Below are positions 32,614-54,826 of a stretch of 64,000 bases of DNA, piece by piece; within the stretch, counting starts at the first letter, position 1; the number at the start of each line of letters is the position of its first letter. The translations under genes and the position numbers were made by a program. The notes under the pieces were generated by a model. It was not told the origin of the DNA and ran no database searches. It was given only the letters and a program-made list of their open reading frames with translations. The stretch is from an uncultured bacterium (GTDB taxonomy: Bacteria > Fidelibacterota > Marinisomatia > Marinisomatales > UBA1611), in the NCBI GenBank assembly GCA_943788175.1, contig CALSPG010000005.1:224001-288000 (forward strand), given 5' to 3'.

Positions 32614-32624
32614 ATTATAAATAT

Positions 32625-34051: not shown

Positions 34052-34052
34052 T

Positions 34053-34733
34053 ATGAATAAAATTTATAGATACAGTTATTTGACCTTAGTTACTGCTTCG
34101 TTTTTTGTGCTGCCTAATTGTTCTGGTAAAAAGAAACTGGATGATAGCTATAAGAAACCTATTAATACTCTATCTGAAAACTCTATAAGCTTAGCTTCTG
34201 GACAATACGAATTTGCCAAAACTTCTAGTGAAGTGCTCTGGGAATGTATGTGGCTAGGAGGAGCAAAGCACAATGGCAGTGTTCAGCTTATTGAGGGAGC
34301 TTTGGATATTTCCAAGAGCGGTCAAATAAGCGGTGCTTTTGTTGTTAGTTTAGATTCTATTAAGTGTTTTGATTTAAAAAATAAAGGTACAAATCAAAAA
34401 CTTATCAGTCACCTTAAAAGTGATGATTTTTTTGATGTTGAAAACTATCCAAAAGCGACTATTCAATTATTAAATGCTGAGCCTACAGGCGGTAATAATT
34501 TTAGATTTGAGGGCGACCTTATGATAAAGGGGAAATCTCACCCAATAGTATTTAATGGTCAAGTAATAGATCATCAAACTTATTATGAAGCTAGTTTAGA
34601 TCTGGTTTTTGATAGATCAAAATATGATGTCAGATACCGATCTGCTAGCTTATTTTCTGACCTCGGGGATAGAATAATCGCAGATGATGTCAAATTAAGT
34701 ATAAATGTGAATCTCAATAGATTAGAAAGATAA
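34053..34733 (+). CDS. YceI-family lipid/isoprenoid-binding lipoprotein
   Basis: Lipobox-like Cys; HNG, HLKSDDFFDVENYP, GDLMIKG, FDRSKYD. Confidence 0.85.
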   Translation: MNKIYRYSYLTLVTASFFVLPNCSGKKKLDDSYKKPINTLSENSISLASGQYEFAKTSSEVLWECMWLGGAKHNGSVQLIEGALDISKSGQISGAFVVSLDSIKCFDLKNKGTNQKLISHLKSDDFFDVENYPKATIQLLNAEPTGGNNFRFEGDLMIKGKSHPIVFNGQVIDHQTYYEASLDLVFDRSKYDVRYRSASLFSDLGDRIIADDVKLSINVNLNRLER

Positions 34734-34736
34734 AAG

Positions 34737-35270
34737 GTGATGAATACCAAAATTAAAATAATCATCAATATCGTGGGCTTTTATATTGGGTGGTGGGGTT
34801 GTATTCTTGGGTCTTCAAACGGGTATCCATACATAGGTCCGCTTTTAATGCTTGTCTTTATAATTATTCATGGAAAATATTTTATTGGTAATGCAAAAGA
34901 ATTACAATTAATAGTCATAATGGGGTTAGTTGGTACTCTCGTTGACAGCTGTCTTTTCTTTTCACAATCTTTTGTATATGCGGGAGCTTATTCAGAAAAT
35001 CTATTTATTGCGCCTTTATGGATTACGGCAATGTGGGCAGGTTTTGCCGCTACGGTTAACCATTCAATGACTTTTTTTAAAGGTAAATGGATCCTTATGA
35101 TTGTCGCTGGTGCAATATTTGGGCCAGCAGCCTACTACACAGGCGAAGGCTTTGGCGCCATAACATTTCAATTGTCTCCTTTGTTATCAACTTTAATTAT
35201 TGGTGCTGTTTGGGCTGTTGCTATGCCATTGGTATTTTTTATAAATGAGAAGCTAGGATTAGGTGGTTAA
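34737..35270 (+). CDS. DUF2878-like membrane protein
   Basis: N..GFYIGWWGC, PLWITAMW..F..T.NHS, GP.AY; usual neighbour of DUF1365/cfa clusters. Confidence 0.75.
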   Translation: MMNTKIKIIINIVGFYIGWWGCILGSSNGYPYIGPLLMLVFIIIHGKYFIGNAKELQLIVIMGLVGTLVDSCLFFSQSFVYAGAYSENLFIAPLWITAMWAGFAATVNHSMTFFKGKWILMIVAGAIFGPAAYYTGEGFGAITFQLSPLLSTLIIGAVWAVAMPLVFFINEKLGLGG

Positions 35271-35820
35271 TATTTTGAAAAAGTACACACTCACACTGGT
35301 TCTTTCTCTTTTAATTTATTCTAATTGTGAGGGTTTTATGAGCGATAATAAGAAATTTGGAGAATTAGAGACAGTTGACTATGTTGACTTAAAAAGATTT
35401 ATGGGAGATTGGTATGTAATTGCAAATATACCTACCTTCATTGAAAAAGGAGCTGTAAATGCTATTGAGTCGTACAGGCTTGACTCTAAAGGTAGGGTTC
35501 AAACTACTTTTACTTTCAGAAAAGACTCTCTAACTGGTCCTCAAAAAAAGTATAATCCAACAGGCTTCATTTACAATAAAGAAACAAACTCTGAATGGAG
35601 AATGCAGTTCCTATGGCCATTTAAATCACCTTTTTTGATTATTGACCTCGATGAAAAATACAATTACACTGTTATAGGTGTACCGAATAGAAAGTATGTT
35701 TGGATAATGGCGAGAAACCATGTTCTAGATGATAAGGTTTATAATGAAATAATTTCTAAACTTGAAAAAGTTGGTTATGACATCACCCAAATTCAAAAAA
35801 TTGAGCAGAATTGGGACTAG
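35263..35820 (+). CDS. blc: Bacterial lipocalin
   Basis: VDLKRFMGDWYVIA, QFLWPF, YVWIMAR. Confidence 0.85.
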   Translation: MVNILKKYTLTLVLSLLIYSNCEGFMSDNKKFGELETVDYVDLKRFMGDWYVIANIPTFIEKGAVNAIESYRLDSKGRVQTTFTFRKDSLTGPQKKYNPTGFIYNKETNSEWRMQFLWPFKSPFLIIDLDEKYNYTVIGVPNRKYVWIMARNHVLDDKVYNEIISKLEKVGYDITQIQKIEQNWD

Positions 35821-35851
35821 TCTTTTCTATGCCTAAAGTTTAGTCCATTTA

Positions 35852-37099
35852 ATGAAATTAGCAATAATAGGTTCTGGTATCTCTGGATTGACAGCTGGCC
35901 ATTTGTTAAATAGAAAACATGACATATCTATTTTTGAAGCAAATGATTACATCGGTGGACACACACATACGCATAATTTAAAGGTTAGAAATAAAGACTA
36001 TTTAATTGACACTGGGTTTATCGTATATAATGAAAGAACATATCCTAGTTTTATAAATTTATTAGACAAATTGGGTGTCGAACGACAGCTTTCTACGATG
36101 GGCTTTAGCGTGAAGTCTACTAGCGAAGATTATGAATATTCAGGTGAGTCAATAAATAGCCTGTTTGCGAAAAGATCAAATATTTTTCGTTTAAGCTTTT
36201 TAAAGATGCTCTATGAAATGTATAAATTTGGTAAGGAAGCAGATTCAAGTGGTTTAGGCTTAAATGCTTCGACCACTCTAGGTGAATATTTAAAAGAAAA
36301 AAAGTATTCAAAAGAGTTTATTCATTATTTTATTACGCCAATGGGTGCGGCAATCTGGTCAACACCAGCAAACAAAGTACTAGACATGCCTGCATATTTT
36401 TTCATTAAATTTTTTTACAACCATGGCATGCTCGAAATATCTAATCGGCCTAATTGGTGGGTTATAAAAAATGGCTCTTCTCAGTACATAAGTAAAATCA
36501 TTAAAGGCTTTGAAGAAAAAATTTATTTATCATCACCAATCAAAAAGGTTGTAAGAACAGGTGATGGCATTGAATTATTTTTAGTTAAAAATGATAAAAA
36601 ATTAAACTTTGACGCTGTTATTTTTGCTACGCATAGTGACCAAGCTCTTAGTCTATTAGAGTCTCCATCTGATTTAGAAGAGGAAATACTTAAATCATTT
36701 CCTTATCAAAAAAATGAAGTTCTTTTGCATACAGATGCTACGGTTTTACCTAAGAGAAAATTAGCTTGGGCCAGTTGGAACTATCAGCTTGATGCTGATC
36801 CAAGTGCACCAGTAATTTTAACGTATAATATGAATATTCTACAATCAATTCAAAGTGATCAAACTTTTTGCGTGACTCTAAATGACCATGATTCAGTCGA
36901 TCAAAGTAAAGTAATCAAGAAGTTAAGCTATGATCACCCCTTGTTTACGGTGGACGCTGTAGCAGCGCAAAAAAGGAAACATGAAATTAGCGGTATAAAT
37001 AATACTTACTATTGCGGGGCATATTGGAGAAATGGTTTTCATGAAGACGGCGTAGTTAGTGCGTTGGATGTTTGTGAACAGTTCGGGGAAATATTGTGA
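35852..37099 (+). CDS. FAD-dependent oxidoreductase (amine-oxidase family, UfaD-like)
   Basis: GSGISG, GGHTHT, DTGFIVYNERTYP, AWASWNY, CGAYWRNGFHEDG. Confidence 0.85.
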   Translation: MKLAIIGSGISGLTAGHLLNRKHDISIFEANDYIGGHTHTHNLKVRNKDYLIDTGFIVYNERTYPSFINLLDKLGVERQLSTMGFSVKSTSEDYEYSGESINSLFAKRSNIFRLSFLKMLYEMYKFGKEADSSGLGLNASTTLGEYLKEKKYSKEFIHYFITPMGAAIWSTPANKVLDMPAYFFIKFFYNHGMLEISNRPNWWVIKNGSSQYISKIIKGFEEKIYLSSPIKKVVRTGDGIELFLVKNDKKLNFDAVIFATHSDQALSLLESPSDLEEEILKSFPYQKNEVLLHTDATVLPKRKLAWASWNYQLDADPSAPVILTYNMNILQSIQSDQTFCVTLNDHDSVDQSKVIKKLSYDHPLFTVDAVAAQKRKHEISGINNTYYCGAYWRNGFHEDGVVSALDVCEQFGEIL

Positions 37100-37860
37100 A
37101 TTTATCAACCGAACATTTTCTATATACGGGTATTGTTAAGCATCGTAGATATACCCCATTCAATAGAGAGTTTTCTTATCCTATTTTTATGCTTTATCTT
37201 GATATAAATGATTTAAATAATGTAATGGAAAAATCAATTTTGTGGAATGTTAATAAAGCAGCAATGGTTTCATTTAATAGGAATGATTATCATAATGCAA
37301 AGACAAAATCTCTTGACCAGGCTGTCCGAGATACAGTTCAAAAAAAAGTTGGAGACAGACCTACCGGTAAAATCAGAATGCTGGCCCACCTCCGATATTT
37401 TGGTTATTGTTTTAATCCTGTAACTTTTTATTATTGTTTCAATCTCGAAGATAATAAGGTTGATTTTATTTTAGCGGAGGTTACAAATACACCGTGGGGA
37501 GAGAGGCACTCATACGTCTTAAGTGCTTCAAAAGATTCAAAGGAAAAAATCAAATCAACAATGAAGAAAGAACTTCATGTATCGCCTTTTTGGGACATGG
37601 ACCATCTGTATGACTGGAGTTTTAGCAGTCCGACAGAAAAGCTAGGTGTTTATATGAAAAATTTTAAAGAAGGGGAAAAAGTTTTTGATGCTACGCTTAA
37701 TTTGAAGAGACTTATTTTAAGTAAGAAGAGTTTATTGGTTACGATTTTTAAATTTCCATTTATGACGATAAAAGTCGTCTTTTGGATACATCTTCAAGCT
37801 TTTTTTTTATGGCTTCGTGGCGCAACTTTCTTTATCCATCCAAGCAAAACTAACAACTAA
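37096..37860 (+). CDS. DUF1365 family protein (UfaO-like)
   Basis: HRR..P, GYCFNPVTFYYC, EVTNTPWGERHSY, HVSPF, IHLQA..LW. Confidence 0.88.
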   Translation: MNLSTEHFLYTGIVKHRRYTPFNREFSYPIFMLYLDINDLNNVMEKSILWNVNKAAMVSFNRNDYHNAKTKSLDQAVRDTVQKKVGDRPTGKIRMLAHLRYFGYCFNPVTFYYCFNLEDNKVDFILAEVTNTPWGERHSYVLSASKDSKEKIKSTMKKELHVSPFWDMDHLYDWSFSSPTEKLGVYMKNFKEGEKVFDATLNLKRLILSKKSLLVTIFKFPFMTIKVVFWIHLQAFFLWLRGATFFIHPSKTNN

Positions 37861-37878
37861 TTTATAGAGAGATTTTAA

Positions 37879-39150
37879 ATGGCGAAAAAATTTTCAATTG
37901 AACAAGCTGCGTCTAGTACAACAATAAAAAGTAAGCCGAGTATTTTGGCGAAAATTTTTAAAAATTTAATATTATCACAATTTAGAAAAATTAATCATGG
38001 ATGTATTATTTTAAACGAAGGTAATAAAAAGATTATATTTGGTGACCAAGGGTCATCTTTAAAAGCAGAGGTAAATATTTATTCAGATGAATTTTACATT
38101 TTGGCTGGTAGCGGCGGGGACCTTGGAATTGCAGAGGCTTATGCTGCGGGTTACTGGGACGCAGATGATATGGTAAAACTAATTCAAATTGTAATTAAAA
38201 ATCAGGAAGTACAAAAAAGCTTAGAAGGGGGCCTAGCAAAATTAATTAGTCCAATTAATAGGTATATCCATAGGTCTCGTAGAAATACAGTTTCAGGTAG
38301 TAAAGAAAATATTGTAGCGCATTATGATTTAAGCAATGAGTTTTTTCAGACATGGTTAGATAAAAGCATGACTTACTCATGTGCTATTTTTGAACCAGAA
38401 GATTTATCCTTATTTGATGCTTCAAAAGAAAAGTTAGATCGTATTTGCCGCAAATTAGATATCCAAGCTGAAGATCATGTTGTTGAAATAGGAACCGGTT
38501 GGGGTAGCTTTGCTGTACATGCTGCGAAACAATATGGTTGTCGAGTAACAACAACTACGATTTCCAACGAGCAGCACGCTTATGTTTCTAATTTAATTGA
38601 AAAGGAAGGTCTGAGAGATAAAATAACATTGCTAAAAAATGATTACAGAGAGATTAAAGGACAATATGATAAACTTGTTTCTATTGAAATGATTGAGGCA
38701 GTTGGTTATAATTTTATACAGCAATTTTTTCAAACATGTTCAGATTTGCTTAAGCCCAATGGCTTGATGGCAATACAAGGGATTACTTATCACGAGCAGG
38801 GATTTGATAATCATCTTAATTCTGTTGATTTTATCAAAAAATATATTTTCCCGGGTTCAAATCTTATTTCAGTTAATCATGTTCTATCAGTTATTAAAGA
38901 TTTTACTGATCTTTCTTTAGTTCATTTAGAGGATATAACAAAATATTATGCTGAGACTTTAAAATTATGGAGGGAAAAATATAAAAAGGAGATGAGCAAA
39001 ATAAAAAAAATGGGATATAGTGATGAGTTTTTGAGAATGTGGGATTACTATTTTATTTATTGTGAGGCTGGGTTTAGGGAAAGATTTATTGGTGATGTTC
39101 AGCTTGTTATGGCGAAACCAAAAAACAAAAATATTCAAATAAACTATTAA
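37879..39150 (+). CDS. Cyclopropane-fatty-acyl synthase family methyltransferase (UfaM-like)
   Basis: HYDLSNEFF, MTYSCA, EIGTGWG, SIEMIEAVG, YIFPG, YCEAGF. Confidence 0.9.
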   Translation: MAKKFSIEQAASSTTIKSKPSILAKIFKNLILSQFRKINHGCIILNEGNKKIIFGDQGSSLKAEVNIYSDEFYILAGSGGDLGIAEAYAAGYWDADDMVKLIQIVIKNQEVQKSLEGGLAKLISPINRYIHRSRRNTVSGSKENIVAHYDLSNEFFQTWLDKSMTYSCAIFEPEDLSLFDASKEKLDRICRKLDIQAEDHVVEIGTGWGSFAVHAAKQYGCRVTTTTISNEQHAYVSNLIEKEGLRDKITLLKNDYREIKGQYDKLVSIEMIEAVGYNFIQQFFQTCSDLLKPNGLMAIQGITYHEQGFDNHLNSVDFIKKYIFPGSNLISVNHVLSVIKDFTDLSLVHLEDITKYYAETLKLWREKYKKEMSKIKKMGYSDEFLRMWDYYFIYCEAGFRERFIGDVQLVMAKPKNKNIQINY

Positions 39151-39157
39151 AAAAACT

Positions 39158-40198
39158 ATGATAAAAAATTTAATTGATTTAGCAGAGAAAGGCATTTTAC
39201 CGGACTTTTTAATTCGTAGCGGAATTAGAAGAATGCAAAAAGAAAGAATTTTATGGTCGAAGTCTAAGACTGTTTCGGAGGTTGAAAAGCATCATCAGAA
39301 TTGGGTTGATGAGATGAAAAAAAGCTCAATTGCTTATGTTCCTGAGAAAGCAAATTCGCAGCATTATGAAGTGCCTCCAGCTTTTTTTGAAAATGCTCTT
39401 GGGGTCCACCTTAAGTACAGTTCTGGTTATTGGCCAGAGGGTATTAGTACGCTTGATGATTCTGAGTTGGCGATGTTAGAGTTAAGCGCTGAACGTGCAG
39501 AAATTTCAAATGGGGATCAAATTCTTGAATTGGGTTGTGGTTGGGGTTCTTTGACTATGTATATGGCAAAAAAATATCCTGACAGCTCAATTACGGCTGT
39601 TAGCAATTCTAGAGATCAAAGAAAATTCATAGAGGCGAAGTGTAAAAAGAGATCTATAAATAATGTAAAAGTAATTACAAAAGACATGAATGACTTCACA
39701 ATTGAAGAAAAATTTGATAAAATTGTTTCAATTGAAATGTTTGAGCACATGAGAAATTATGAGCAATTATTAGATAAGGTTGCTAGCTGGTTAAAACCAG
39801 GTGGAAAATTATTCATTCATATTTTTACACATAAAACATTAGTATATCCTTTCACTGAAGATGGTGAGGGTGATTGGATGGGGAGGAATTTTTTCAGCGG
39901 CGGCATTATGCCATCGCATCAGCTTCTATTATATTTTCAAAATAAATTGAATATTGAAGAGAGCTGGCGTTTTAATGGCTCACATTATGAGCAGACATCA
40001 CTTGCCTGGCTTAAAAAAATGGATAGTAATAAAAAAGAAATTATGAGCATTTTTGAAAATACTTATGGAGCAGGAGATGCTAAAATATGGTTTCAAAGAT
40101 GGAGAATTTTCTTTATGGCTTGCGAAGTCTTATTTGGTTATGATGGTGGCAAAGAATGGGGAGTTTCACATTACAGGTTTGTAAAATCTGGCAAATAG
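39158..40198 (+). CDS. Second cfa/CNMT-like SAM methyltransferase
   Basis: ANSQHYEVP, LKYSS, ELGCGWGS, SIEMFEHMRNY, QRWRIFFMAC. Confidence 0.88.
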   Translation: MIKNLIDLAEKGILPDFLIRSGIRRMQKERILWSKSKTVSEVEKHHQNWVDEMKKSSIAYVPEKANSQHYEVPPAFFENALGVHLKYSSGYWPEGISTLDDSELAMLELSAERAEISNGDQILELGCGWGSLTMYMAKKYPDSSITAVSNSRDQRKFIEAKCKKRSINNVKVITKDMNDFTIEEKFDKIVSIEMFEHMRNYEQLLDKVASWLKPGGKLFIHIFTHKTLVYPFTEDGEGDWMGRNFFSGGIMPSHQLLLYFQNKLNIEESWRFNGSHYEQTSLAWLKKMDSNKKEIMSIFENTYGAGDAKIWFQRWRIFFMACEVLFGYDGGKEWGVSHYRFVKSGK

Positions 40199-40213
40199 CT
40201 TGTATAATTAAAT

Positions 40214-40942
40214 ATGACGATTATAATATTATTTATTTTACATTGGTATTCTTCGCTGTTTTTTCAAACAGTGTTCTTGCACCGTTATGCTTCCCATCAA
40301 ATGTTTACTATGTCAAAAACATGGGAGCGAATATTTTTTTTCTGTACGTTTTTAACGCAAGGTTCCTCTTTTCTTAATCCTAGAGCTTATGCAATACTCC
40401 ATAGGCTTCACCATAAATATAGTGACACAAAAAATGATCCGCATTCCCCTATATTTTCAAAAAATATTATAAAACTAAATCTTAATACCATAAAGCACTA
40501 TGAGTCCGTAAGACTCAATAAAAAAGACTATTCAAAATATGACACTGATGTTCCGAGGTGGCCATCTTTAGAAAAGATATCTGACCACTGGATAACAAGA
40601 TTATCTTTTGTAGTTTTTTACAGTCTAATCTATTTAAAGTTTACCACTGCAAATTGGCAGTATGCTCTGCTACCTATTCATTTTATCATGGGGCCTCTTC
40701 ATGGTTCTATAGTCAATTGGTGTGGGCACCGATACGGGTATACAAATGATAAAAAAACAAAAGACAATTCAAAAAATACACTACCTGTCGATTTTTTAAT
40801 GATGGGTGAACTTTTTCAAAATAATCACCACAGTAATCCATCTAAAATGAAATTTTCGCGACGATGGTTTGAGTTAGATCCCGGATACATTGCTGCGAAG
40901 ATACTTTCAAAAATAAATATACTCAGAATAAAAAACGCTTAA
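40214..40942 (+). CDS. Membrane fatty-acid (acyl-CoA) desaturase
   Basis: His boxes HRYASH, HRLHH, QNNHH. Confidence 0.88.
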   Translation: MTIIILFILHWYSSLFFQTVFLHRYASHQMFTMSKTWERIFFFCTFLTQGSSFLNPRAYAILHRLHHKYSDTKNDPHSPIFSKNIIKLNLNTIKHYESVRLNKKDYSKYDTDVPRWPSLEKISDHWITRLSFVVFYSLIYLKFTTANWQYALLPIHFIMGPLHGSIVNWCGHRYGYTNDKKTKDNSKNTLPVDFLMMGELFQNNHHSNPSKMKFSRRWFELDPGYIAAKILSKINILRIKNA

Positions 40943-40987
40943 AACGCTCAAAAGTACTTGACATTTACCATTTAGGCTAAATAATAT
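40932..40987 (+). promoter_or_regulatory. 9-bp tandem repeat site plus sigma70 promoter
   Basis: AAAACGCTT-AAAACGCTC-A (40932-40950), 7 nt, TTGACA (40958-40963), 18 nt, TAATAT. The ATG at 40993 follows 5 nt later. Confidence 0.65.
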
Positions 40988-40992
40988 ATGCC

Positions 40993-41247
40993 ATGGCAAA
41001 TAACGTTCAAAGTATTGAAAACAACATAACGGTTAAAAAGTATGGTAGTCATGTTAAGATTAGCATGGGAGCTACATATTGTATCATTTCTTGTTCAATT
41101 CATAAGATATCTGAATTCGTCAAAGTTGTAGATAACATGTTCTTAGACGGATGGGATGCTACTTCTGGAATTACATCAGAAGACGGTATGGTGTTTCAAT
41201 CGATGACAAAAATGTCAATAAATAATAACCAATCAAACAGTAATTAA
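40993..41247 (+). CDS. Hypothetical protein (84 aa)
   Basis: ORF fills the gap between the promoter and the next RBS; no family recognised. Confidence 0.6.
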   Translation: MANNVQSIENNITVKKYGSHVKISMGATYCIISCSIHKISEFVKVVDNMFLDGWDATSGITSEDGMVFQSMTKMSINNNQSNSN

Positions 41248-41258
41248 GGAGTTTTGTT

Positions 41259-41501
41259 ATGACAATATTACAAGCTGTCGCTGCTGGGTTAGAAAACACA
41301 GAAAAGCGCAAAGAGCCAAAGAAAAAAGCAGATAGGTATTTTCTAGACGGAAAAGTTGCCGACAGAGAGTTAAAAGCTTGCAACCTATGTAAAATCGTAT
41401 GGCAAAAGCACGTTTTCAATGGTAAAACAACAATCAAGTATTATGATGAAGTTCCAAGATATGGAAAATCTCAGCAAATATGCCCAAGTTGTAGTCAATA
41501 A
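41259..41501 (+). CDS. Small hypothetical zinc-ribbon-like protein
   Basis: AAGGAG RBS; CNLC and CPSC pairs. Confidence 0.7.
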   Translation: MTILQAVAAGLENTEKRKEPKKKADRYFLDGKVADRELKACNLCKIVWQKHVFNGKTTIKYYDEVPRYGKSQQICPSCSQ

Positions 41502-42213
41502 TTGAATATTTTAATAGTAAATGGATCTGGGGCCATTGGGTCCTCCATTATCAAGGGCTTGAATGATAAGTCTGTAAACCTAATCATCACTTCAAGCACA
41601 GGCGAAGATGTGCATGGCAACAAGACAATGCATTGGAAATATTCAGGTAGTGATTCTGTTGAATCGCTCTTCGAATCCATCAAAAACGAGCATAGTCAAC
41701 TTGATTCAGTTGTAAATTGTCTAGGATCAATTTTCTCTAAAGCCAGCTCACTTAACGAGTGTACAAGATTTTGATGAAGTTTTGGATATTAATTTAAAGT
41801 CTTCCTTTCTTATACTGAAAAACTCAGTACCAATGATGAGGAAAAATGGTGGAAATCTTCTTTTTTTCTCATCAGCAGCATCAAGCATAGGAATGGCTAA
41901 TCATGAAGCCATCTCTGCAGCCAAAGGAGGTATAGAGGCTATGGTAAGGTCCGCGGCTGCAACATATGCTAAGAATAATATTAAAGTAAATGCTATTGCT
42001 CCGGGTCTAGTTGATTCTAATTTATCAAAAAATATAGTTTCTAATGAAGCGGCATTAAATGTGTCAAAGAGAATGCACAGTGTTGGGAGAATTGGGACGC
42101 CTGATGATATTTCCAAATTTGCTATTCCATTAATTGTCGATAATAGTAGTTGGGTAACTGGTTCAATCATTAATATTGATGGAGGACTTTCAACTACTAA
42201 AATAGCGAGTTAA
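41502..42213 (+). CDS. Short-chain dehydrogenase (SDR); +1 frameshift at ~41735
   Basis: GSGAIG. Removing one base gives GSIFLKPAHLTSVQDFDEVLDINL, joining HEAISAAKGG, VNAIAPG, IDGG. Confidence 0.85.
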
Positions 42214-42216
42214 TAA

Positions 42217-42513
42217 ATGGATAGTATAGATCATATTGCAGTACAGACAGATTCAATAATTGATTCTGTAAAATGGTATAAAGAGATGTTTTCATGTGAA
42301 GTTGAATATGAAGATGATTCTTGGGCATTATTAAAATTTGAAAACACAAAGCTGGCCCTAGTCATTCCGAACCAGCACCCACCACACATTGCTGTTAAAA
42401 GGGATAACTTAGAGAGCTTTGGCTCTCCAGTCAAACATAGAGATGGTTCAGAATCAGTGTACGTAAAATCCCCAGACAACAATACATTCGAGTTGATTAG
42501 ATATCCTAAATAA
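42217..42513 (+). CDS. VOC/glyoxalase family protein
   Basis: IDHIAV, HIAV, YVKSPDNNTFEL. Confidence 0.8.
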   Translation: MDSIDHIAVQTDSIIDSVKWYKEMFSCEVEYEDDSWALLKFENTKLALVIPNQHPPHIAVKRDNLESFGSPVKHRDGSESVYVKSPDNNTFELIRYPK

Positions 42514-43053
42514 ATGAAGCGTTACACAGTAATATTCCTAATTTTTATTGCAAACTTAATTTTTGCAGGAAGTCAAAACATGACGGAAAACATTTATAAC
42601 ATTAAAATAAAAAATGTTTATGGAGAAGAAACATCATTAAAAGTTTATCAGGGAAAGAAAATTCTAATTGTTAACGTTGCTTCAAACTGCGGATATACTA
42701 GTCAATATAAAGGCCTTCAACAGTTACAAGATCAGTACGGAGATAAGCTACAAGTCATTGCTTTCCCTTGTAATGATTTCGGTTCTCAAGAACCTGGAAC
42801 AGACAAACAAATTGCTCAGTTTTGCGAATCTAATTACAATGTAAAATTTCCAGTAATGAGCAAAATAAACATTAAAAGCAAGCCTATCCATCCAATTTAT
42901 GAATGGTTGTCAACCAGTGAGCTAAATGGGTGGAATGATTCAAAACCTAGGTGGAACTTTTACAAATACCTAATTGATGAAAATGGAAATTTAATCAAAT
43001 CCTTTGGAAGCAATACTAGTCCTTTAAGTTCTGAAATTATTCAAAGTTTATAG
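42514..43053 (+). CDS. Glutathione peroxidase (Cys form) with signal peptide
   Basis: VNVASNCGYT, AFPCNDFGSQEPG, WNFYKYL. Confidence 0.92.
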   Translation: MKRYTVIFLIFIANLIFAGSQNMTENIYNIKIKNVYGEETSLKVYQGKKILIVNVASNCGYTSQYKGLQQLQDQYGDKLQVIAFPCNDFGSQEPGTDKQIAQFCESNYNVKFPVMSKINIKSKPIHPIYEWLSTSELNGWNDSKPRWNFYKYLIDENGNLIKSFGSNTSPLSSEIIQSL

Positions 43054-43079
43054 TAATTAATACTTAAAGGTATTGAATT

Positions 43080-44564
43080 TTGGATGCTACAATTATTTTT
43101 CCTCATCAGTTATTTTCGAGCTCAAGTGCATTAAAAAGAAGTCGTAAGACTTTTATTATCAGAGACCCTTTATTTTTTAATGATAAAAAATATCCAGTTC
43201 GGTTTCATAAAAATAAAATTCTTCTTCATATTCTTTCCACAGATTACTATAGAAGTGAGTTGGTTGAAAGGGGATATGATGTCCAATTAGTTACTGAAAA
43301 AGAATTAATTGGAGAGAACTATTTTGATTCATTTTTTAAAAAAAACAATATCAATGAAGTTCATTATTGTGACCCAGTTGATTACACAATTACTAAAAGA
43401 CTAGACCACTCGATTAATAGTCTATCCATTAAATCATATAAATATGATACACCAGGTTTTATGCTAGAAGAATCAGACGTCTTTGATCATTTTACCAATA
43501 AGAAGTCACATTTTATGGCTGCCTTTTATAAGAAACAGCGTAAAAGATATAACATTCTAATGAATGATGATGGAACTCCTGTTGGCGGAAAGTGGAGTTT
43601 TGATCATGAGAACAGGAAGCGTTTTCCAAAAACAATGGAATCGCCAAAAATTTCTCAGATTATGTATCAAAATGATAAGTTTGTGCAGGCTGAAGACTCG
43701 GTCAGTGCATTTTATAATGACAATCTTGGTAATATGGATAATTTTAACTATCCTGTTACAAGAAGTCAGGCATTGAATTCTTTTCATTCATTCCTGGAAG
43801 AACGTTTAATTAACTTTGGCGCTTATGAAGATGCTATTGTCAAAGATGAATCGACCCTATTTCATAGTATCATTACTCCTTATTTAAATATCGGATTGAT
43901 AACTCCAAATGAGATTATACAACAAGTTTTAGATTTTTCATCCAATAATTCTATTCCACTGAATTCTCTGGAAGGTTTCATTAGGCAAATAATTGGTTGG
44001 AGAGAATTTATGCGAGGTATATATGTCGCTGATGGTGTCAAGCAGCGGAATTCAAATTTTTGGAATTACAATAGAGCAATGCCAAAGTCATTTTATGATG
44101 GAACAACAGGCATAGAGCCCTTAGATGACACTATCAAGAAATGTTTAAACAGTGGTTATGCTCATCATATTGAGCGGTTAATGATTTTAGGGAATATGAT
44201 GTTATTAATAGGTATTAAGCCAAATGCTGTGTACAAATGGTTTATGGAAATGTTTGTTGATTCTTATGATTGGGTTATGGTCCCCAATGTATATGGGATG
44301 AGTCAATTTGCTGATGGTGGTTTATTAGCCACAAAACCATATATAAGTGGAAGTAATTACATTTTAAAAATGAGTGATTATAAAAAAGGCGACTGGTGTC
44401 CCATTTGGGATTCTCTTTATTGGGGATTTGTTGATCGTAATAGAGAATTTTTTAGAAAAAACCCTCGCATGAGTATGATGGTTTCAATGTTTGATAAAAA
44501 AGATGATGCCTCAAAAAAGAGGCTATTCGAAACATCTCAAAATTTTATTGAAAGTTTATTTTAA
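43080..44564 (+). CDS. Bacterial (6-4) photolyase / CryPro-PhrB family
   Basis: FPHQLF, GGKWSFDHENR, FGAYEDA, RQIIGWREF, YAHHIERLM, WVMVPNVYG, TKPYISGSNY. Confidence 0.88.
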   Translation: MDATIIFPHQLFSSSSALKRSRKTFIIRDPLFFNDKKYPVRFHKNKILLHILSTDYYRSELVERGYDVQLVTEKELIGENYFDSFFKKNNINEVHYCDPVDYTITKRLDHSINSLSIKSYKYDTPGFMLEESDVFDHFTNKKSHFMAAFYKKQRKRYNILMNDDGTPVGGKWSFDHENRKRFPKTMESPKISQIMYQNDKFVQAEDSVSAFYNDNLGNMDNFNYPVTRSQALNSFHSFLEERLINFGAYEDAIVKDESTLFHSIITPYLNIGLITPNEIIQQVLDFSSNNSIPLNSLEGFIRQIIGWREFMRGIYVADGVKQRNSNFWNYNRAMPKSFYDGTTGIEPLDDTIKKCLNSGYAHHIERLMILGNMMLLIGIKPNAVYKWFMEMFVDSYDWVMVPNVYGMSQFADGGLLATKPYISGSNYILKMSDYKKGDWCPIWDSLYWGFVDRNREFFRKNPRMSMMVSMFDKKDDASKKRLFETSQNFIESLF

Positions 44565-44690
44565 CAACACTGTAAAAAGATAAAAGGGTATAACAATCAC
44601 TCCAATTAAAATAAGTGAAACTACAGACCATTTAAAAAACGTTATAAAAAAGTATTTAATAGCAAAAAAAATTTTATTTTTTATTTTCAC
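44556..44690 (-). CDS. Putative 44-aa single-TM protein (below the ORF-track cutoff)
   Basis: GTG start overlaps the TGA of 44687-45178 (GTGA coupling); MKIKNKIFFAIKYFFITFFKWSVVSLILIGVIVIPFYLFTVLLK. Confidence 0.45.
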   Translation of the reverse strand: MKIKNKIFFAIKYFFITFFKWSVVSLILIGVIVIPFYLFTVLLK

Positions 44691-45178
44691 TTATACTTTC
44701 TATATCTGGAAATCACATCAATTATAATTGTATCATAATCTTTAATTTTAAGATGCAACTTATCATTGACAACTTTCGCTGAACCACTTAGAAGTTTGTC
44801 CTTGTAAGTCCAATTTTGATCTCTGTCGACGGCCCAGTTGAAAGTGTTGATTTTGCTATCAGACCAATCTTGTTCACCGGTCCATTCAATGTTACCTAGT
44901 AATTGAGTGAACGTAGGCCTTGTTAAATCTTTCGCGTTCGAATAATTTTTTTCAAAATCAGTTTTGGCATATGGGTGCTTCTCAATCAATACAGTACCGC
45001 TAGTAGATTTTATAAATAATCTCATATAATCTGTCCAATCTTGGAACCAGATTTCTGCAGGTCCTATATTAGAAGAGTCTGAATCCCAAACATAATGAGG
45101 TATGTTTTTATAGTCACTTTTATCTTCTGCATTTAAAAGTGTTGCTAGGTAGATGAATGTAATTATTATTTTTATCAT
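44687..45178 (-). CDS. Hypothetical secreted protein
   Basis: Signal-peptide-like N-terminus; no family recognised. Confidence 0.65.
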   Translation of the reverse strand: MIKIIITFIYLATLLNAEDKSDYKNIPHYVWDSDSSNIGPAEIWFQDWTDYMRLFIKSTSGTVLIEKHPYAKTDFEKNYSNAKDLTRPTFTQLLGNIEWTGEQDWSDSKINTFNWAVDRDQNWTYKDKLLSGSAKVVNDKLHLKIKDYDTIIIDVISRYRKYK

Positions 45179-45227
45179 GTAATAAATTAACTCACTGTTT
45201 GATAAGTATTCAAATGTTTTATATCAA

Positions 45228-45284
45228 AAAAAGTTCAAAACGCTCAAAAAAACCTTTACCTTTTGTCCATTTTTTTATTACTAT
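45228..45284 (+). promoter_or_regulatory. 9-bp tandem repeat site plus promoter of the regulator gene
   Basis: AAAAAGTTC-AAAACGCTC-A (45228-45246), 8 nt, TTTACC, 18 nt, TACTAT. The ATG at 45290 follows 5 nt later. Confidence 0.55.
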
Positions 45285-45289
45285 CTGAA

Positions 45290-46172
45290 ATGAAATATTT
45301 AAATTCTAAGGAAGTATCAGACATAATAGGTAGTAAACATCTCTACTTTAAAGAGGTGGACTGACAATGGCACTATTGGTTGCCATAAAACTGCAGGAGG
45401 TCACAGAAAATTCACTATGCAAAATGTTAGAGAATACTACAGCTCTAACAAAAAAGCTTCTAAAAGTGAAAATGTTGTATTAGAAAACTTCGAGCATAAA
45501 AAGATTTTTGAATTAATTAAAAAAGGTAATTTATCTGAACTGAGCTACAAGCTTGCAGATGCAAGTATAGAATCTGATGAAGCGACTGTTAAAACCATTA
45601 TTTCTGGTTCCTACATGAATAATATTGATGTAGAAACTTTATTTGATCAAGTTGTTGATCCTGGTAGTATGATTGTAGAAAAAGCACTACATGAAGGTTA
45701 CTTATCTCACACTGAAGCTTTTATTAGTAGAAAAATTATTACACGGGCTACAGAATCTCTAAATGATCACAAGCCAAATGGTTCACTTAATGGTAAGTAT
45801 GCTCTATGTGTTAATTTTGAAGATAATCTACCTGATTTAGGAGTGGTCATGTCAGAAGTCATTTTGAGGCATAAGGGTTATAATGTTTTTAATACAGGTT
45901 CGCATGCTGAGCTTGGAGACCTTGAAAAAGTGATTAAAAATAAAAAGATAGATCTTGTTGTTTTTTATCTCTGCAATATGCAATGCTGTATGTCAATTGT
46001 TGGGGACAACATTAATAAGACTGCAAAACAAGTGACTTCTATTTTTGAAATATCCGAAAAAATGAAAGTTGATGTAATATTTGGTGGGTTAGGCATAGAG
46101 CTTTTGCCAAATATTTCTAATACAATATCTAAAACATTTATTACGTTCAAAGAGCTAAACAAACTAGTTTAG
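45290..46172 (+). CDS. Excisionase/BldC-type HTH regulator fused to a degenerate cobalamin-binding-like domain (CarH/LitR architecture); +1 frameshift at ~45332
   Basis: MKYLNSKEVSDIIG/VNISTLKRWTDNGTIGCHKTAGGHRKFT joins ORF 45417-46172 after deleting one A; helical cap plus Rossmann-like domain (LG...LR.KGYNV...G, VIFGG). Confidence 0.75.
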
Positions 46173-46191
46173 TTTACTTCCTCAATTAATT

Positions 46192-47544
46192 ATGGGTGAA
46201 AATATGGGAAGAATGCGTCAAATTAGAACTGGGCCATTTAATGGCAAGTGCGTTCTCTACTGGATGGTAAGAGACAAAAGAGTTTGTGATAATTGGGCTC
46301 TATTAGAAGCTCAAAAAAAAGCAATTGAGAATAAAGTTCCCTTAATAGTAGTTTTTAATTATCACAATTCATATCAAGATGCGAATGTAAGGCAATATAG
46401 TTTTTCATTTTATGGGCTTCAAGAAGTGGATAAAGATTTGAAAAAACTCAATATCCAATTCTTTTTATTAAGTGGGCCAGCCAATGAGACTATTTCTAAG
46501 TTTATTGAGGATTACAAAGTAGGTTTTTTAATTACAGATTTTAGCCCGCTTAAAGTTTATACAAAAAGATTAAGAACTGTAGTTAAGAATACCACTATTC
46601 CCATTACCCAGGTTGATACCCATAATATAATTCCAGTTTGGAATGCATCTCCAAAAAAAGAATATGCAGCTTATACAATAAGGCCCAAAATAAAAAAATT
46701 ACTGCCGATATATTTAACAGATATCCCTCAATTAAAGAGACATCCTGTACAAAGTGATTTTTCAAGCGTTGAAATAAATTGGAAACAAGTTGTAGAGTCA
46801 ATGAACATAGATAGAAGCGTGAAGTCTGTAGACTGGATAAATCCGGGTGAAAAAAATGCAAGAAACCTTCTAGGAAAATTGAAAACACAATTAATTGATT
46901 ATAATGAAAAAAGGAATAATCCAAATCTGCACAAATTGTCAAATATGAGTCCGTATTTTCATTTTGGTCAAATTTCGCCTCAGCGTGTAGCTTTTGAAAT
47001 AAAAAATTCAAACCTCTCTGATGTCGATAAAGAAGCTTTTTTGGAGGAGATGATTGTTAGAAGAGAATTAGCGGACAACTTTTGTTTTTATGAAGAAAAT
47101 TATGACTTTTTTGAGGGCTTTCATGCTTGGTCACAAAAGACATTAAATGAACATAGAAATGATGAAAGAGAATATGTTTATTCCCCGCAAGAGTTTGAGG
47201 CATCAACAACGCATGATGAATTATGGAATGCAGCACAAGATGAAATGAAGACTAGGGGTAAAATGCATGGTTTTATGCGGATGTATTGGGCAAAAAAAAT
47301 TCTGGAGTGGAGCCCGAGTCCTGAGTTAGCGCAGCAAACGGCAATAGATCTAAACGATAAATACCAACTTGATGGAAGAGACCCTAATGGTTACACCGGC
47401 ATAGCATGGAGCATTGGAGGCATTCATGATAGAGCCTGGTTTGAAAGACCTGTCTTTGGAAAAGTTCGATACATGAATTATAATGGATGCAAAAGAAAGT
47501 TCAATGTGGATCAATACATAGAAAGCAATAAAATAATTAGTTGA
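46192..47544 (+). CDS. Class II CPD photolyase
   Basis: YWMVRDKR..DNWAL, SPYFHFGQ, RRELADNF, MHGFMRMYWAKKILEW, DGRDPNGY. Confidence 0.92.
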   Translation: MGENMGRMRQIRTGPFNGKCVLYWMVRDKRVCDNWALLEAQKKAIENKVPLIVVFNYHNSYQDANVRQYSFSFYGLQEVDKDLKKLNIQFFLLSGPANETISKFIEDYKVGFLITDFSPLKVYTKRLRTVVKNTTIPITQVDTHNIIPVWNASPKKEYAAYTIRPKIKKLLPIYLTDIPQLKRHPVQSDFSSVEINWKQVVESMNIDRSVKSVDWINPGEKNARNLLGKLKTQLIDYNEKRNNPNLHKLSNMSPYFHFGQISPQRVAFEIKNSNLSDVDKEAFLEEMIVRRELADNFCFYEENYDFFEGFHAWSQKTLNEHRNDEREYVYSPQEFEASTTHDELWNAAQDEMKTRGKMHGFMRMYWAKKILEWSPSPELAQQTAIDLNDKYQLDGRDPNGYTGIAWSIGGIHDRAWFERPVFGKVRYMNYNGCKRKFNVDQYIESNKIIS

Positions 47545-47576
47545 ATGTGCAACGATTTCATATTTAACTTTATGAT

Positions 47577-48038
47577 GTGTCTAATAATCAAAAATTGAAA
47601 AGTGATATCGATATAGGCATGTTGATGTCTCAAGTTGATAGGCTTTGCACTAAGCACTTTAGTCAAAACGCTCAAAATGCTGGTATAAATATCTCCCAAG
47701 ACCAATGGCTGGTTCTAGGTCCAGTTTGGAAGGTTGAGGGGATAGCACAGAAAGACATTGCTGAATATTGTGGTAAGGACAAAACAAGTGTAACAAAGAT
47801 AATTGACACGCTTGAGAAAAAAAATTTAATGGTGCGAGTTCCTGATCAGTTAGATCAAAGGATTAAGAGGGTATTCCTCAGTAACAAGGGCAAAGAGCTA
47901 ATGGAAAGTACAATGCCCATAATGGAACAGACTCGAAATGAAGTGCGTGAAGGTATTCCTGATGAAGAAATTGATTTATTTAAAACTGTATTAATTAAAA
48001 TATATAAAAACTTAACAGCGAATAAAAACTCCAACTAG
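47577..48038 (+). CDS. MarR family regulator
   Basis: QWLVL, QKDIA, VTKIIDTLEKK, D..DQR...V.LS.KG. Confidence 0.9.
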   Translation: MSNNQKLKSDIDIGMLMSQVDRLCTKHFSQNAQNAGINISQDQWLVLGPVWKVEGIAQKDIAEYCGKDKTSVTKIIDTLEKKNLMVRVPDQLDQRIKRVFLSNKGKELMESTMPIMEQTRNEVREGIPDEEIDLFKTVLIKIYKNLTANKNSN

Positions 48039-53600: not shown

Positions 53601-53808
53601 ACTTACTTCGGTTACCACGTTTGTGGGTTTATTCCCGCTATTAATCGAAAAGAGCGTGCAAGCACAGTTTCTAGTTCCAATGGCGGTTTCACTAGCTTTT
53701 GGTGTATTATTTGCAACTTTTATTACACTAATCTTGGTGCCAACTAGTTATTTAATTATTGAGGATATGAAAGATTTTTCCGCAAAACTATTTAATAAAA
53801 ACGCTTAA
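50644..53808 (+). CDS. RND efflux permease (AcrB family)
   Basis: EVFP, YPGASPEDIE, GIVVDDAVVVGEN, GVVVNDS, RFRPILLTS. Confidence 0.93.
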   Translation: MKNIIRWFILNTVAANLLMIFIIIAGLFTLSRLRMEVFPDITIPIINVSVLYPGASPEDIEESICVKVEEQVQGINGLKRITSSSNESYGSINIEVENGYDIDEVKDEVKSLVDAITSFPDDAEKPTVKSFDGQPEVITIAVHGNVDEVSLLNIAEKVRDEVSDLPSITQTRLGKKPKEISIEISENTLQKYGLSFDYVASKIRSSSMDVPGGAIETYDGEILIRSKGQAYSGDEFGAIPVLSLSDGSTVLLRDIANIVDGFQDVEYDIKFNSEPALLIRVYRTGEQNALDIADEVHKYIIKKNPTMPPGISLTTMKDESVILRGRIELLTENAYLGLVLVLIVLALFLKPKLAAWVSLGIPISFMGGFWLLPLFDVSINMISLFTFILVLGIVVDDAVVVGENIHIFRKRGLNAVDAALEGAYQVAKPVIFAVLTTMVTFSPMILVEGAMGKIWRIIPVVTIVVLIFSLIESLTILPAHLAHMKDDDEEEQNRFLSWWSKVQLVIHNGLQSFIKNQYNPLLRLALKNRGNTIAISISILIFTIGFVASGFIKFNFFPPLEADIVIAGVEYPEGTPVQITKVGLEQVEKSAYRLKDSLEVLYPDKEIFINMVSTAGDQPIKTQSARGPGNLDANFFGSHLAECVIELAPGEERPVSTIEISKIWRELTGPIAGVKQVTFDSDLFSSGAPIEIQLSSISRGDLKEVTSILKDKLQTYAGVFDIKDSFSAGKDEIKLSLRPEAQNYGITMASLARQVRQAFYGEEVQRVQRGRDEIKVFLRYPKEERASLNNLEQMNVRVGNDIEVPLGQVASSELSSGYSTITRTDRKRSISVTADVDLSEANANEILAKFEKEHILPILESYPNVIYSFEGEQREQRDTLGSLFKNFALALFIVYVLLAIPFKSYSQPLIIMSAIPFGFTGAVIGHVIMGMNLAVLSIIGIVALSGVVVNDSLVMVDFINRYRQEDGKSCLEAALAAGPRRFRPILLTSVTTFVGLFPLLIEKSVQAQFLVPMAVSLAFGVLFATFITLILVPTSYLIIEDMKDFSAKLFNKNA

Positions 53809-53853
53809 AACGCTCATTATTGATTGACAAGGTCAGCTGGTTTCAATTAAATT
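53798..53853 (+). promoter_or_regulatory. 9-bp tandem repeat site plus sigma70 promoter
   Basis: AAAACGCTT-AAAACGCTC-A (53798-53816), 7 nt, TTGACA (53824-53829), 18 nt, TAAATT. Confidence 0.65.
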
Positions 53854-53896: not shown

Positions 53897-54826
53897 ATGA
53901 AAGTTGCAGTTTTTGGTGGCACTGGGTTCGTAGGTTCATACTTAATAGAGCATCTTCTTGAACAGGGTCATCATCCAAGGCTTCTAGTTCGTAAGGGCTC
54001 AGATAGTAAAGTGATTTCTTCTCAGAATTGTGAGATTATCAACGGTGACATCAATGATAAAAATTCAATTAAAGAAACTATTTCCGGTGTAGAAGCAGTT
54101 ATTTATACGATTGGAATTATTAGAGAGTTCAAATCAAAGGGCGTGACTTTTGAAAATGCCCACTTTGATGGAGCTGTTAAATGTATTGACGCTGCAGAAG
54201 AGGCAGGTGTAAATAAGTTCATTCTCATGAGCGCAAATGGTGTTTGCCCTGATGGGACGGGTTATCAAAAAACAAAATGGATGTCTGAACAATATCTTAA
54301 GAATACGAAATTGAATTGGACAATTTTTAGACCCTCCACAATTTTTGGAGATCCAAGAGGTAGCGGCCGTCCTGAATTTTGTTCGCAACTGAAAAAAGAT
54401 ATGATTGGTTTGCCATTTCCTGCTCCCCTTTTTCATGAGGGTCTTAATCCTTTTGATGCGGGAAATTTTTCTATGTCCCCGATTCATATTAAAGATGTCG
54501 CTAAAAGTTTTATCAGCTCGTTAAACAATAAAAAGCTAGAAAAAAAAACAATAGAGCTCGGGGGACAGGCTTTTACTTGGAAACAAATTATTAAAAATAT
54601 AGGCATAGCTTCTGGTAAAAATAAATTTATGGTTCCTGCGCCAGTATTTGCTGTCAAATTAGTTGCTAATATTTTAGATAGATTTAGTTGGTTTCCAGTT
54701 ACGGCTGACCAGTTAACCATGCTGGTTGAGGGCAATACTTGTGATTCTTCAAAGTTTTTTACTGAAAATGAATTAATACCAATTCCTTTTAATGAAGAAA
54801 ATCTTTCCTATCTAGGTAAAGATTAA
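53897..54826 (+). CDS. NAD(P)-binding epimerase-like protein (NDUFA9 family)
   Basis: GGTGFVG, GIIRE, MSANG, YQKTK, FRPSTIFG. Confidence 0.85.
   Translation: MKVAVFGGTGFVGSYLIEHLLEQGHHPRLLVRKGSDSKVISSQNCEIINGDINDKNSIKETISGVEAVIYTIGIIREFKSKGVTFENAHFDGAVKCIDAAEEAGVNKFILMSANGVCPDGTGYQKTKWMSEQYLKNTKLNWTIFRPSTIFGDPRGSGRPEFCSQLKKDMIGLPFPAPLFHEGLNPFDAGNFSMSPIHIKDVAKSFISSLNNKKLEKKTIELGGQAFTWKQIIKNIGIASGKNKFMVPAPVFAVKLVANILDRFSWFPVTADQLTMLVEGNTCDSSKFFTENELIPIPFNEENLSYLGKD

Follow-up and report, generated by a model that had tools for sequence, protein, structure and literature searches.

The locus and the regulator gene

The window considered here, a stretch of 64,000 nucleotides with a GC content of 34% (contig CALSPG010000005.1, positions 224,001 to 288,000), comes from an uncultured bacterium of the SAR406 or Marinimicrobia phylum and holds a gene for a CarH-like regulator, whose limits had been placed exactly by an earlier note on this DNA (Table 1). 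As that note had observed, the regulator stands between two photolyase-type genes, one related to DPRP and one for a DNA photolyase, with a minus-strand gene intervening on the DPRP side. The photo-oxidative setting described there is also borne out, as genes of photo-repair and oxidative stress (photolyase family, glutathione peroxidase) surround the regulator. The protein appears to have kept the CarH fold while losing the residues that hold adenosylcobalamin (AdoCbl), a cysteine-rich loop is placed in the former cofactor pocket, and tandem 9-bp repeats in front of the gene are its likely operator.

In the assembled sequence the gene is broken. The first frame reads MKYLNSKEVSDIIG and then stops, the frame of the open reading frame (ORF) 45417-46172 (251 aa) reads VNISTLKRWTDNGTIGCHKTAGGHRKFTMQ from 45333, and the two are offset by a single extra A at 45332 (GGT-A-GTA), which conceals the N-terminal helix-turn-helix (HTH) domain as the earlier note had supposed. 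Intact homologues of 292-302 aa read ...DIIGVNISTLKRW... across this point, and the base is missing in the four closest genomes in a DNA alignment. Metagenome contigs from four public runs were aligned to 40800-47700, three of them DNA runs from three studies (X1, X2 and X4) and one an RNA library (X15). Near-identical contigs in all three DNA runs were without base 45332 at full depth: 4.69 of 4.69 in the X1 contig (5398 nt, with 2 other letters and 1 gap), 47.2 of 47.2 in X2 (1305 nt, 1 other letter, 1 gap) and 28.7 of 28.7 in X4 (1374 nt, 3 other letters, 1 gap). The X15 contig starts at 45342 and does not cover the base; six runs recorded as RNA contain 0.41-0.90 of the words of the region, with DNA carry-over being possible. 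Because the base is missing at full depth from the contigs of the DNA runs, the frameshift belongs to the window and not to the population. It is an assembly or private error, and the population gene is intact with 293 aa and is not dead.

It is extremely improbable that the frameshift is genuine and the regulator a decaying pseudogene in the source organism. The window does hold the insertion, and another one-base insertion splits a short-chain dehydrogenase/reductase (SDR) gene 3.6 kb upstream of the regulator; however, near-identical contigs (at least 99%) in every run covering 45332 or 41735/6 include versions without the insertion. Neither insertion lies within a long homopolymer, yet two indels in 6.9 kb suggest assembly error. 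Programmed frameshifting at GGT-A-GTA was also considered and dropped, since the population is without the base.

The insertion in the SDR gene, at 41735-41736, divides it into ORFs 41502-41774 and 41782-42213. Contigs without this base were found in all four runs, at 3.8 of 6.5 depth in X1 and as every bridging contig in X2, X4 and X15. Since this assembly of 12 contigs has two indel errors within 6.9 kb, other 'pseudogenes' in it are to be distrusted.

Fold and domain architecture

The intact homologue P0002, which is 90% identical to the regulator, matches the Pfam families HTH_17 (31.8 bits against a cut-off of 27) and MerR_1 (29.1 bits), its score for B12-binding (PF02310), 21.6 bits, being under the cut-off of 32.1. 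HTH_17 was matched in 23/23 members of the Cys clade described below, and the BldC structures 6AMA/6AMK are weak sequence matches of the HTH (E ~0.05). A search with another whole homologue, P0053, returned its own family and B12/HTH relatives only.

An AlphaFold2 model built on a 148-sequence alignment (predicted local distance difference test 87.6, predicted template modelling score 0.76) contains an HTH at residues 1-52, a helical bundle at 60-157 and a five-stranded Rossmann domain at 169-291. Its top Foldseek matches, which span the full length, are the Thermus CarH structures 5c8f, 5c8e and 5c8d (E 5e-12 to 1e-10), and against the cobalamin-binding domain (CBD) of CtMerR (8jbs) the template modelling score is 0.82-0.84 with a root-mean-square deviation of 2.5-2.7 Å. 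By sequence (phmmer) the best solved relative is 8JBS/8JBT, E 1.7e-16 over residues 6-209. When the Cys clade (23 sequences) was aligned with the B12-type relatives (34 sequences) by hhalign, the probability was 100% and E 1e-59 over 290 columns. Model, structure search and profile alignment agree on the three-domain CarH/CtMerR fold of DNA-binding domain, helical bundle and Rossmann CBD. The CarH architecture with an HTH of BldC/excisionase type, as predicted in the earlier note, is in this way confirmed at the level of sequence and model.

Loss of the cobalamin site

Light-responsive cobalamin domains are described by four signatures: GxxW, EH, GxxH and GxxxP (PMC11796333). None of the four is found in the SAR406 regulator by hhalign and phmmer. 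In GxxW, whose Trp lies over the adenosyl group, the W column is L (hhalign) or A (phmmer to 8JBS), and the helix is without Trp in 23/23 sequences. The EH motif of the bundle reads AF (hhalign) or EA (phmmer to CtMerR). The lower axial His of GxxH is replaced by Pro in NLPDLG, P180 being invariant in the clade, and GxxxP after strand 2 reads G-S-H-A-E/K with E or K in the Pro column. The phmmer alignment to CtMerR is offset by one residue from hhalign in the bundle helix, and the conclusion is the same in both: there is no Trp or His at the signature positions. The absence of both His ligands, claimed earlier from the letters of the window, stands, and that of the Trp goes with it. PF02607 (B12-binding_2) is matched by 0/23 Cys-type vs 34/34 B12-type sequences, PF02310 at E<=1e-3 by 18/23 vs 30/34, and the GG motif is kept in the regulator. 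It is these lost residues that suggest B12-independence.

The cysteine loop and the conserved pocket

The cysteine cluster noticed earlier in the Rossmann domain, YLCNMQCC, is placed by the AlphaFold2 model right after strand 3. Aligned with the B12-type relatives by hhalign, it is an 8-residue insertion FYLCxxQC directly after that strand, followed by one more Cys. By the DxHxxG-SxL-GG motif, the insertion site is presumably the place where the SxL segment contacts the nucleotide tail.

Conservation was counted over 134 full-length sequences that bear the His-to-Pro loop and range from 28% to 92% identity to P0002. C..QCC is present in 134/134 of them, even at the lowest identity and far more often than chance would give, so the proposed check of CxxxCC in homologues came out in favour of a clade-defining feature. 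In P0002 numbering, C227, Q230, C231 and C232 are 100% conserved, C172 at the end of strand 1 99.3%, H204 97.8%, and H139, on the helix of the lost EH, 95.5%. At the C-terminal edge of the sheet every loop is near-invariant (EDNLPDLG, NTGSHAELG, YLCxxQCC and FGG), from which it follows that the old cofactor pocket is strongly constrained despite the loss of the B12 ligands. This conservation in sequence indicates a conserved functional pocket.

Distribution and origin of the clade

A relative of the regulator at E<=1e-8 occurs in 47 of 301 genomes of the phylum. Among 30 loci fetched, the full Cys type was found in 15 genomes (families f1, f5 and f20) and an intermediate type, with Pro and CDRQCC and with EH kept, in 4 genomes (f17); the remaining 11 loci are of the canonical B12 type. 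The members of the intermediate clade with EH are L037-L039 and P0130. In a quick maximum-likelihood tree the Cys and intermediate types form one clade (Shimodaira-Hasegawa-like approximate likelihood ratio test 98) beside B12-type proteins of the same phylum; the rows L023 (the window itself), L046 (truncated) and L036 (contains X, not added) were left out. The regulator clade would be a single-origin branch nested among B12-type relatives of its own phylum. It is also narrow, as only three full-length representatives with the Cys loop were found at the 50%-identity level among 1014 matches at E<=1e-3.

The pocket could be read in another way, namely as that of a direct photoreceptor with a tetrapyrrole-type chromophore (a corrinoid in a new mode, heme or bilin), where a loop Cys would be one axial ligand and His139, or the EH where it is kept, would stand opposite. 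In this protein conservation is highest in the loops that line the pocket, fold and GG motif are kept, and the intermediate clade retains the upper-face EH and has Pro and CDRQCC all the same. H139 lies on the same helix as the old EH, 2 (phmmer) or 4 (hhalign) residues before it, the cell has proteins of B12-dependent type, and the SCHIC domains of AppA/PpaA are B12-like domains that bind heme. On the other side, all four AdoCbl light-sensor signatures and PF02607 are missing, the 8-residue insertion stands where the nucleotide tail would bind, and H139 is not conserved in the intermediate clade. A tetrapyrrole photoreceptor is considered unlikely.

The probable operator repeats

Before the regulator gene the block G-n-Y-C-A-W-AACGCTCA is conserved in 20/20 loci (the window and L001-L019), and its AACGCTC core starts 49-52 nt before the regulator ATG in all of them. 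Two loci stand outside this count: L020, which has a CGTGCA variant tandem pair on the opposite strand, and L021, which is without its 5' end. In the relatives the element is a tandem 9-bp direct repeat, AACGCTCAT followed by AACGCTCA, at times with three units and with the consensus AACGCTCAW; each locus has 1-3 further copies, for the most part with a CTTGAC -35 box 8-9 nt downstream. Across the 21 related loci (215 kb), a relaxed two-unit pattern gave 21 matches, of which 19 fall on the gene strand, vs 0 in a backwards control; in the 2.27-Mb genome it gave 3 vs 0. The candidate operator of the earlier note is by these counts a real and conserved element.

Three tandem sites lie in the window and a fourth outside it (Table 1). 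Site B has the top score of the genome with a position weight matrix (PWM) and also faces the divergent gene 44687-45178. The promoter behind site A, at 40958-40985, is the best sigma-70-like one of the region (11/12 match). Sites A and C have the 23-mer AATAAAAACGCTTAAAACGCTCA in common, and this looks like a duplicated promoter cassette; at both, the gene before the site (for a desaturase at A, for an RND pump at C, each product ending in ...KNA) has its stop codon within the first repeat unit (40934-40942 and 53800-53808). The operon behind the fourth site encodes a secreted protein of 470 aa and a membrane protein of 121 aa and ends in a third photolyase-family gene, whose 404-aa product has the FAD_binding_7 part of photolyases only.

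Two other kinds of match were set aside. An exact match inside the MarR gene (47665-47677) is not conserved, the same codon being AAT in L001, L003 and L004, and the single-unit match at C11:2335 together with other 1-mismatch matches in the genome showed no excess (18 vs 16 in the backwards control). In the window, no repeat motif with a PWM score above 7 precedes the lipid-modification genes (31621-40942).

Similar tandem repeats precede the intermediate and several B12-type regulator genes, with a half-site that differs by clade: L020 and the intermediate clade have CGTGCA, whereas the main Cys clade and part of the B12 types have CGCTCA. It can be said that the element travels and co-varies with the regulator family. 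It is likely, from these patterns in the sequence, that the AACGCTCAW repeats are the operator of this regulator and were inherited together with the regulon from a B12-dependent ancestor.

The repeats might instead serve an alternative sigma factor as a promoter element or be bound by another regulator, the present one being merely among the targets of that factor. The fixed distance of 49-52 nt to the start codon does resemble a promoter element, and -35 boxes of extracytoplasmic function (ECF) sigma factors commonly have an 'AAC' core. The block, however, is a contiguous 14-18-mer with 9-bp periodicity and has no separate conserved -10 box, at sites A and C it is followed by a standard -35 element, TTGACA, and the repeats follow the family through B12, intermediate and Cys types with their clade-specific half-sites. 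BldC, which has an HTH of the same type, is described to form cooperative multimers on 9-bp direct repeats, in a head-to-tail arrangement (PMC5859096). An owner of the repeats other than this regulator is accordingly thought quite improbable.

Neighbouring genes and the putative regulon

The gene set 40993-44564 also adjoins the regulator in relatives. The first two genes behind site A, the 84-aa ORF (40993-41247) and the 80-aa CxxC...CxxC, zinc-ribbon-like ORF (41259-41501), have no Pfam match, and their products are candidates for small modulators or antirepressors. In the FeS-BCP/CryB group of photolyase-like proteins a four-Cys Fe-S site is present; the DPRP seems to be without it, as no invariant Cys was seen among 11 aligned orthologues. 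Metagenome depth rises 10-30-fold over 43803-44495, within the DPRP gene, which suggests a stretch conserved in many organisms.

In the related loci the photolyase gene lies directly downstream of the regulator in 15/21 and DPRP upstream in 12/21. No terminator-like site was found between the regulator and photolyase genes of the window, and the two are probably co-transcribed. Homologues of the divergent gene 44687-45178 lie on the gene strand behind a tandem site in L006, L007, L010, L015, L018 and L019.

Upstream of the putative operon, 35852-40942 encodes an amine oxidase, DUF1365, two methyltransferases resembling cyclopropane-fatty-acyl synthase and a fatty-acid desaturase, a lipid-modification set typical of singlet-oxygen regulons. 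Downstream, the palindrome GTTGAATGTGCAAC (GTTG-N6-CAAC) at 47540-47553 precedes the MarR gene 47577-48038 closely and is invariant in 4/4 genomes; this is probably a MarR operator controlling the downstream genes for outer-membrane protein (OMP), HlyD and RND efflux. Identical stretches of at least 50 nt at 1397-1414 and 3373-3390, ~2 kb apart, suggest a repeated gene or domain.

Table 1. Coordinates of the regulator, its predicted parts, the tandem repeat sites and the adjoining genes
Feature	Position	Strand	Remarks
Regulator gene (CarH-like)	45290-46172	+	ATG at 45290, stop at 46170-46172
Regulator codons 1-14, start of HTH	45290..45331	+	MKYLNSKEVSDIIG in translation; same as N-termini of intact 292-302-aa homologues (P0001, P0002, others)
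Extra A breaking the regulator frame	45332..45332	+	no counterpart in L001-L004 or in X1, X2, X4 contigs
Other 279 codons of the regulator and stop	45333..46172	+	HTH to ~residue 53 (45449), helical bundle ~45471-45764, Rossmann ~45798-46166 (intact numbering)
Helix that bears W-x9-EH in B12-type relatives	45684..45722	+	here ALHEGYLSHTEAF; no Trp/His at signature positions (phmmer, hhalign)
NLPDLG loop after strand 1	45825..45842	+	Pro at 45831-45833 in place of the lower axial His of CarH/CtMerR (phmmer to 8JBS, hhalign); P and D invariant 23/23
YLCNMQCC, Cys-rich insertion after Rossmann strand 3	45966..45989	+	Cys codons at 45972, 45984, 45987
Site A, AACGCTTAA then AACGCTCAA	40934..40951	+	ends 6 nt before TTGACA-16-AATAAT promoter-like site; conserved in L002, L004
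Site B, AAAGTTCAA then AACGCTCAA, tandem 9-bp direct repeats	45230..45247	+	43 nt before regulator ATG
Site C, AACGCTTAA then AACGCTCAT	53800..53817	+	followed by TTGACA
Region of the fourth tandem site (reversed orientation) and its operon, outside the window	G000:C5:463969-467151		site 28 nt before operon
Putative operon behind site A	40993..44564	+	84-aa ORF, 80-aa CxxC..CxxC ORF, SDR, VOC/glyoxalase-like, glutathione peroxidase, DPRP
DPRP photolyase-related gene	43080-44564	+	PF04244, 2e-45
163-aa protein between regulator and DPRP	44687..45178	-	divergent from regulator; no Pfam match
DNA photolyase gene	46192..47544	+	19 nt downstream of regulator; PF00875, 2.1e-27
NmrA-like NAD(P)-binding protein	53897..54826	+	downstream of site C; PF13460 6.5e-28, PF05368 4.7e-22

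Comparison with known systems

CtMerR of Chloracidobacterium thermophilum (8JBS/8JBT) is a CarH-like photoreceptor that depends on AdoCbl and has an alternative DNA-binding domain (PMC11796333). The SAR406 regulator shares its HTH type (…KRW…GGHR.F) and the order of its three domains. In contrast to it, CtMerR has GxxW, EH, GxxH (with the His204 ligand) and GxxxP and binds AdoCbl (PMC11796333), whereas the SAR406 protein has none of these and carries the FYLCxxQC insertion. CarH/LitR of Thermus thermophilus, a class I LitR (5C8D/5C8E/5C8F, 3WHP), resembles the regulator in its full-length fold and represses light-induced photoprotection genes. It binds direct repeats, a DNA complex being shown by the title of a structure entry. 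Its identity to the regulator is, however, 14-17%, its HTH is a classical MerR one and not HTH_17/BldC-like, and its B12 ligands are present. BldC of Streptomyces (6AMA/6AMK) has in common with the regulator the HTH_17/MerR-like winged HTH and, if the AACGCTCAW repeats are bound by the latter, the 9-bp direct repeats as target, but it is a protein of 68 aa without a sensor domain and its repeat consensus is AATTxxxxC, not AACGCTCAW.

SoxR (MerR family, [2Fe-2S]) and AppA (a SCHIC B12-like domain with a Cys-rich tail) sense oxidants via clustered cysteines. The idea of Cys-based oxidant sensing would be shared with the SAR406 regulator, but the Cys spacing differs.

The earlier note called this the strongest candidate for an undescribed system in the window, and this was overstated, because B12-free LitR/CarH proteins of classes II-V are already in print (PMC9758184). 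The regulator was set apart from these classes by their published descriptions. Photolyase, cryptochrome-like and furan-fatty-acid genes are controlled by these classes, and class II LitR (PplR1 from P. putida, PmlR2 from P. mendocina) is a repressor (PMC9758184); the photolyase gene as a putative target and, as far as the lost residues suggest, the B12-independence are shared with the SAR406 protein. Class II LitR keeps the 4-helix bundle (B12-binding_2) and its C-terminus is not a CBD, while the SAR406 regulator is the reverse, without PF02607 and with the Rossmann CBD fold kept; classes III-V are described without the B12-binding domain (PMC9758184), whereas the CBD fold is present here. 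Class II LitR has a short LOV photoreceptor beside it as its partner, but the LOV signature GxNC[RK]xL[QN] was not found in six frames of the SAR406 source genome, which is 92% complete. The regulator fits neither the AdoCbl photoreceptors, of whose four signatures it has none, nor the published descriptions of class II and classes III-V LitR.

The class II system provides the model for a further alternative, in which the regulator itself senses nothing and uses its degenerate B12 domain only to oligomerise, while its removal from DNA is the work of a separate protein activated by light, as with short LOV and class II LitR or with CarS and CarA. The precedent is that the PmlR2 repressor is inactivated by PmSB-LOV binding to its HTH domain (PMC9758184). 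Candidates for the partner are the 80-aa CxxC..CxxC protein encoded behind site A and a regulon member from the cryptochrome/photolyase family; photolyase-family genes are the most constant neighbours of the regulator, and small ORFs of unassigned function come first behind that site. The invariance of the Cys loop and pocket loops is, however, hard to explain in a mere scaffold, the 92%-complete genome yielded neither a LOV nor a BLUF protein, and the photolyase-family genes are equally well explained as targets of the regulon. A complex prediction of DPRP with the sensor part of the regulator (residues 58-292) gave 0.00 in two runs without controls, and this is not evidence either way. Control by such a partner has, in the judgement made here, a rather small chance of being correct.

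Proposed mechanism

It is proposed that the 293-aa regulator is autoregulated and that its regulon serves epipelagic SAR406 under light and photo-oxidative stress. Its BldC-like HTH_17 domain would bind tandem 9-bp AACGCTCAW repeats head-to-tail, on or immediately upstream of three promoters, namely those of the regulator-photolyase operon, the 40993-44564 operon and the NmrA-like gene. That this very protein binds the motif is held to be a good probability. By analogy with CarH, CtMerR and class II LitR it would most likely be a repressor that is let go under light stress, and repression is regarded as fairly probable. The regulator would descend from AdoCbl-dependent photoreceptors of CtMerR/CarH type in the same phylum, with fold, operator type and regulon kept and AdoCbl no longer bound in the CarH manner.

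The sensor would be the remodelled cofactor pocket, where the invariant C-x2-Q-C-C loop with C172 may react to photo-generated oxidants (H2O2, singlet oxygen), either by oxidation of its thiols or by way of a metal or Fe-S centre held by Cys, in a reaction that would shift oligomerisation and free the DNA. Direct sensing by this pocket is favoured because of the conservation of the loop, a regulon directed at peroxide and photo-damage, and the finding of no LOV, BLUF or ChrR-type sensor in the 92%-complete genome; the chance accorded to it falls a little short of even. Two PAS_9 matches in the genome belong to 427- and 609-aa ORFs away from the regulator. The suggestion of the earlier note that the regulator replaces CarH and sigmaE-ChrR rests on finding neither a canonical CarH nor a ChrR-type cupin in the 92%-complete source genome.

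Several points weigh against this picture. The source genome has two ORFs with strong B12-binding domains, of 1185 aa (MetH-sized) and 138 aa, so a corrinoid should be available and its scarcity is no obvious reason for the loss of the site. Other B12 proteins have His-off binding modes, and the loss of His alone does not exclude corrinoid binding. There are only three clade-specific cysteines, and two residues, C172 and C232, may go back to the ancestor, as B12-type relatives often have Cys in these columns. The tree of the clade was rooted at its midpoint and quickly made. The repeats of sites A and C lie just upstream of the -35, a position that is also typical for activators, and the motif could belong to another factor, its tie to the regulator being co-occurrence and clade covariation.

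A more specific form of the pocket hypothesis would have the CarH scaffold re-tooled, so that the C-x2-Q-C-C loop with C172 and/or His139 holds a non-B12 prosthetic group (Fe-S, Cys-ligated tetrapyrrole or another chromophore) at the cobalamin site. This is put forward only tentatively, as something somewhat unlikely. If it were true, one of the most abundant heterotrophs of the ocean would perceive light or singlet oxygen by a chemistry undescribed for LitR/CarH, and the intermediate clade, with EH kept, His changed to Pro and CDRQCC present, would record a stepwise swap of cofactor.

Significance

SAR406/Marinimicrobia are abundant, uncultured ocean bacteria. Epipelagic Marinimicrobia are described to have acquired photolyase and peroxide-stress genes, and the relevant passages of that source mention no regulator (PMC6143742); in the literature no paper was found that names CarH together with Marinimicrobia. 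What is new here is the demonstration that the frameshift is an artefact, the statistics of the Cys loop together with the intermediate clade, and the covariation of the operator. The case is also a caution, as the apparent pseudogene was an assembly artefact. The locus offers a compact and testable regulon, with one regulator, a simple operator of 9-bp repeats, and photolyase and peroxidase targets, and its sensor domain is a natural experiment, a B12 photoreceptor without cofactor ligands in which the pocket is kept. Knowing the ligand or stimulus of the Cys loop would bring a sixth mechanistic type into the LitR/CarH family, might yield a new small optogenetic or redox-responsive switch, and would explain how photoprotection is controlled without AdoCbl in surface-ocean heterotrophs.

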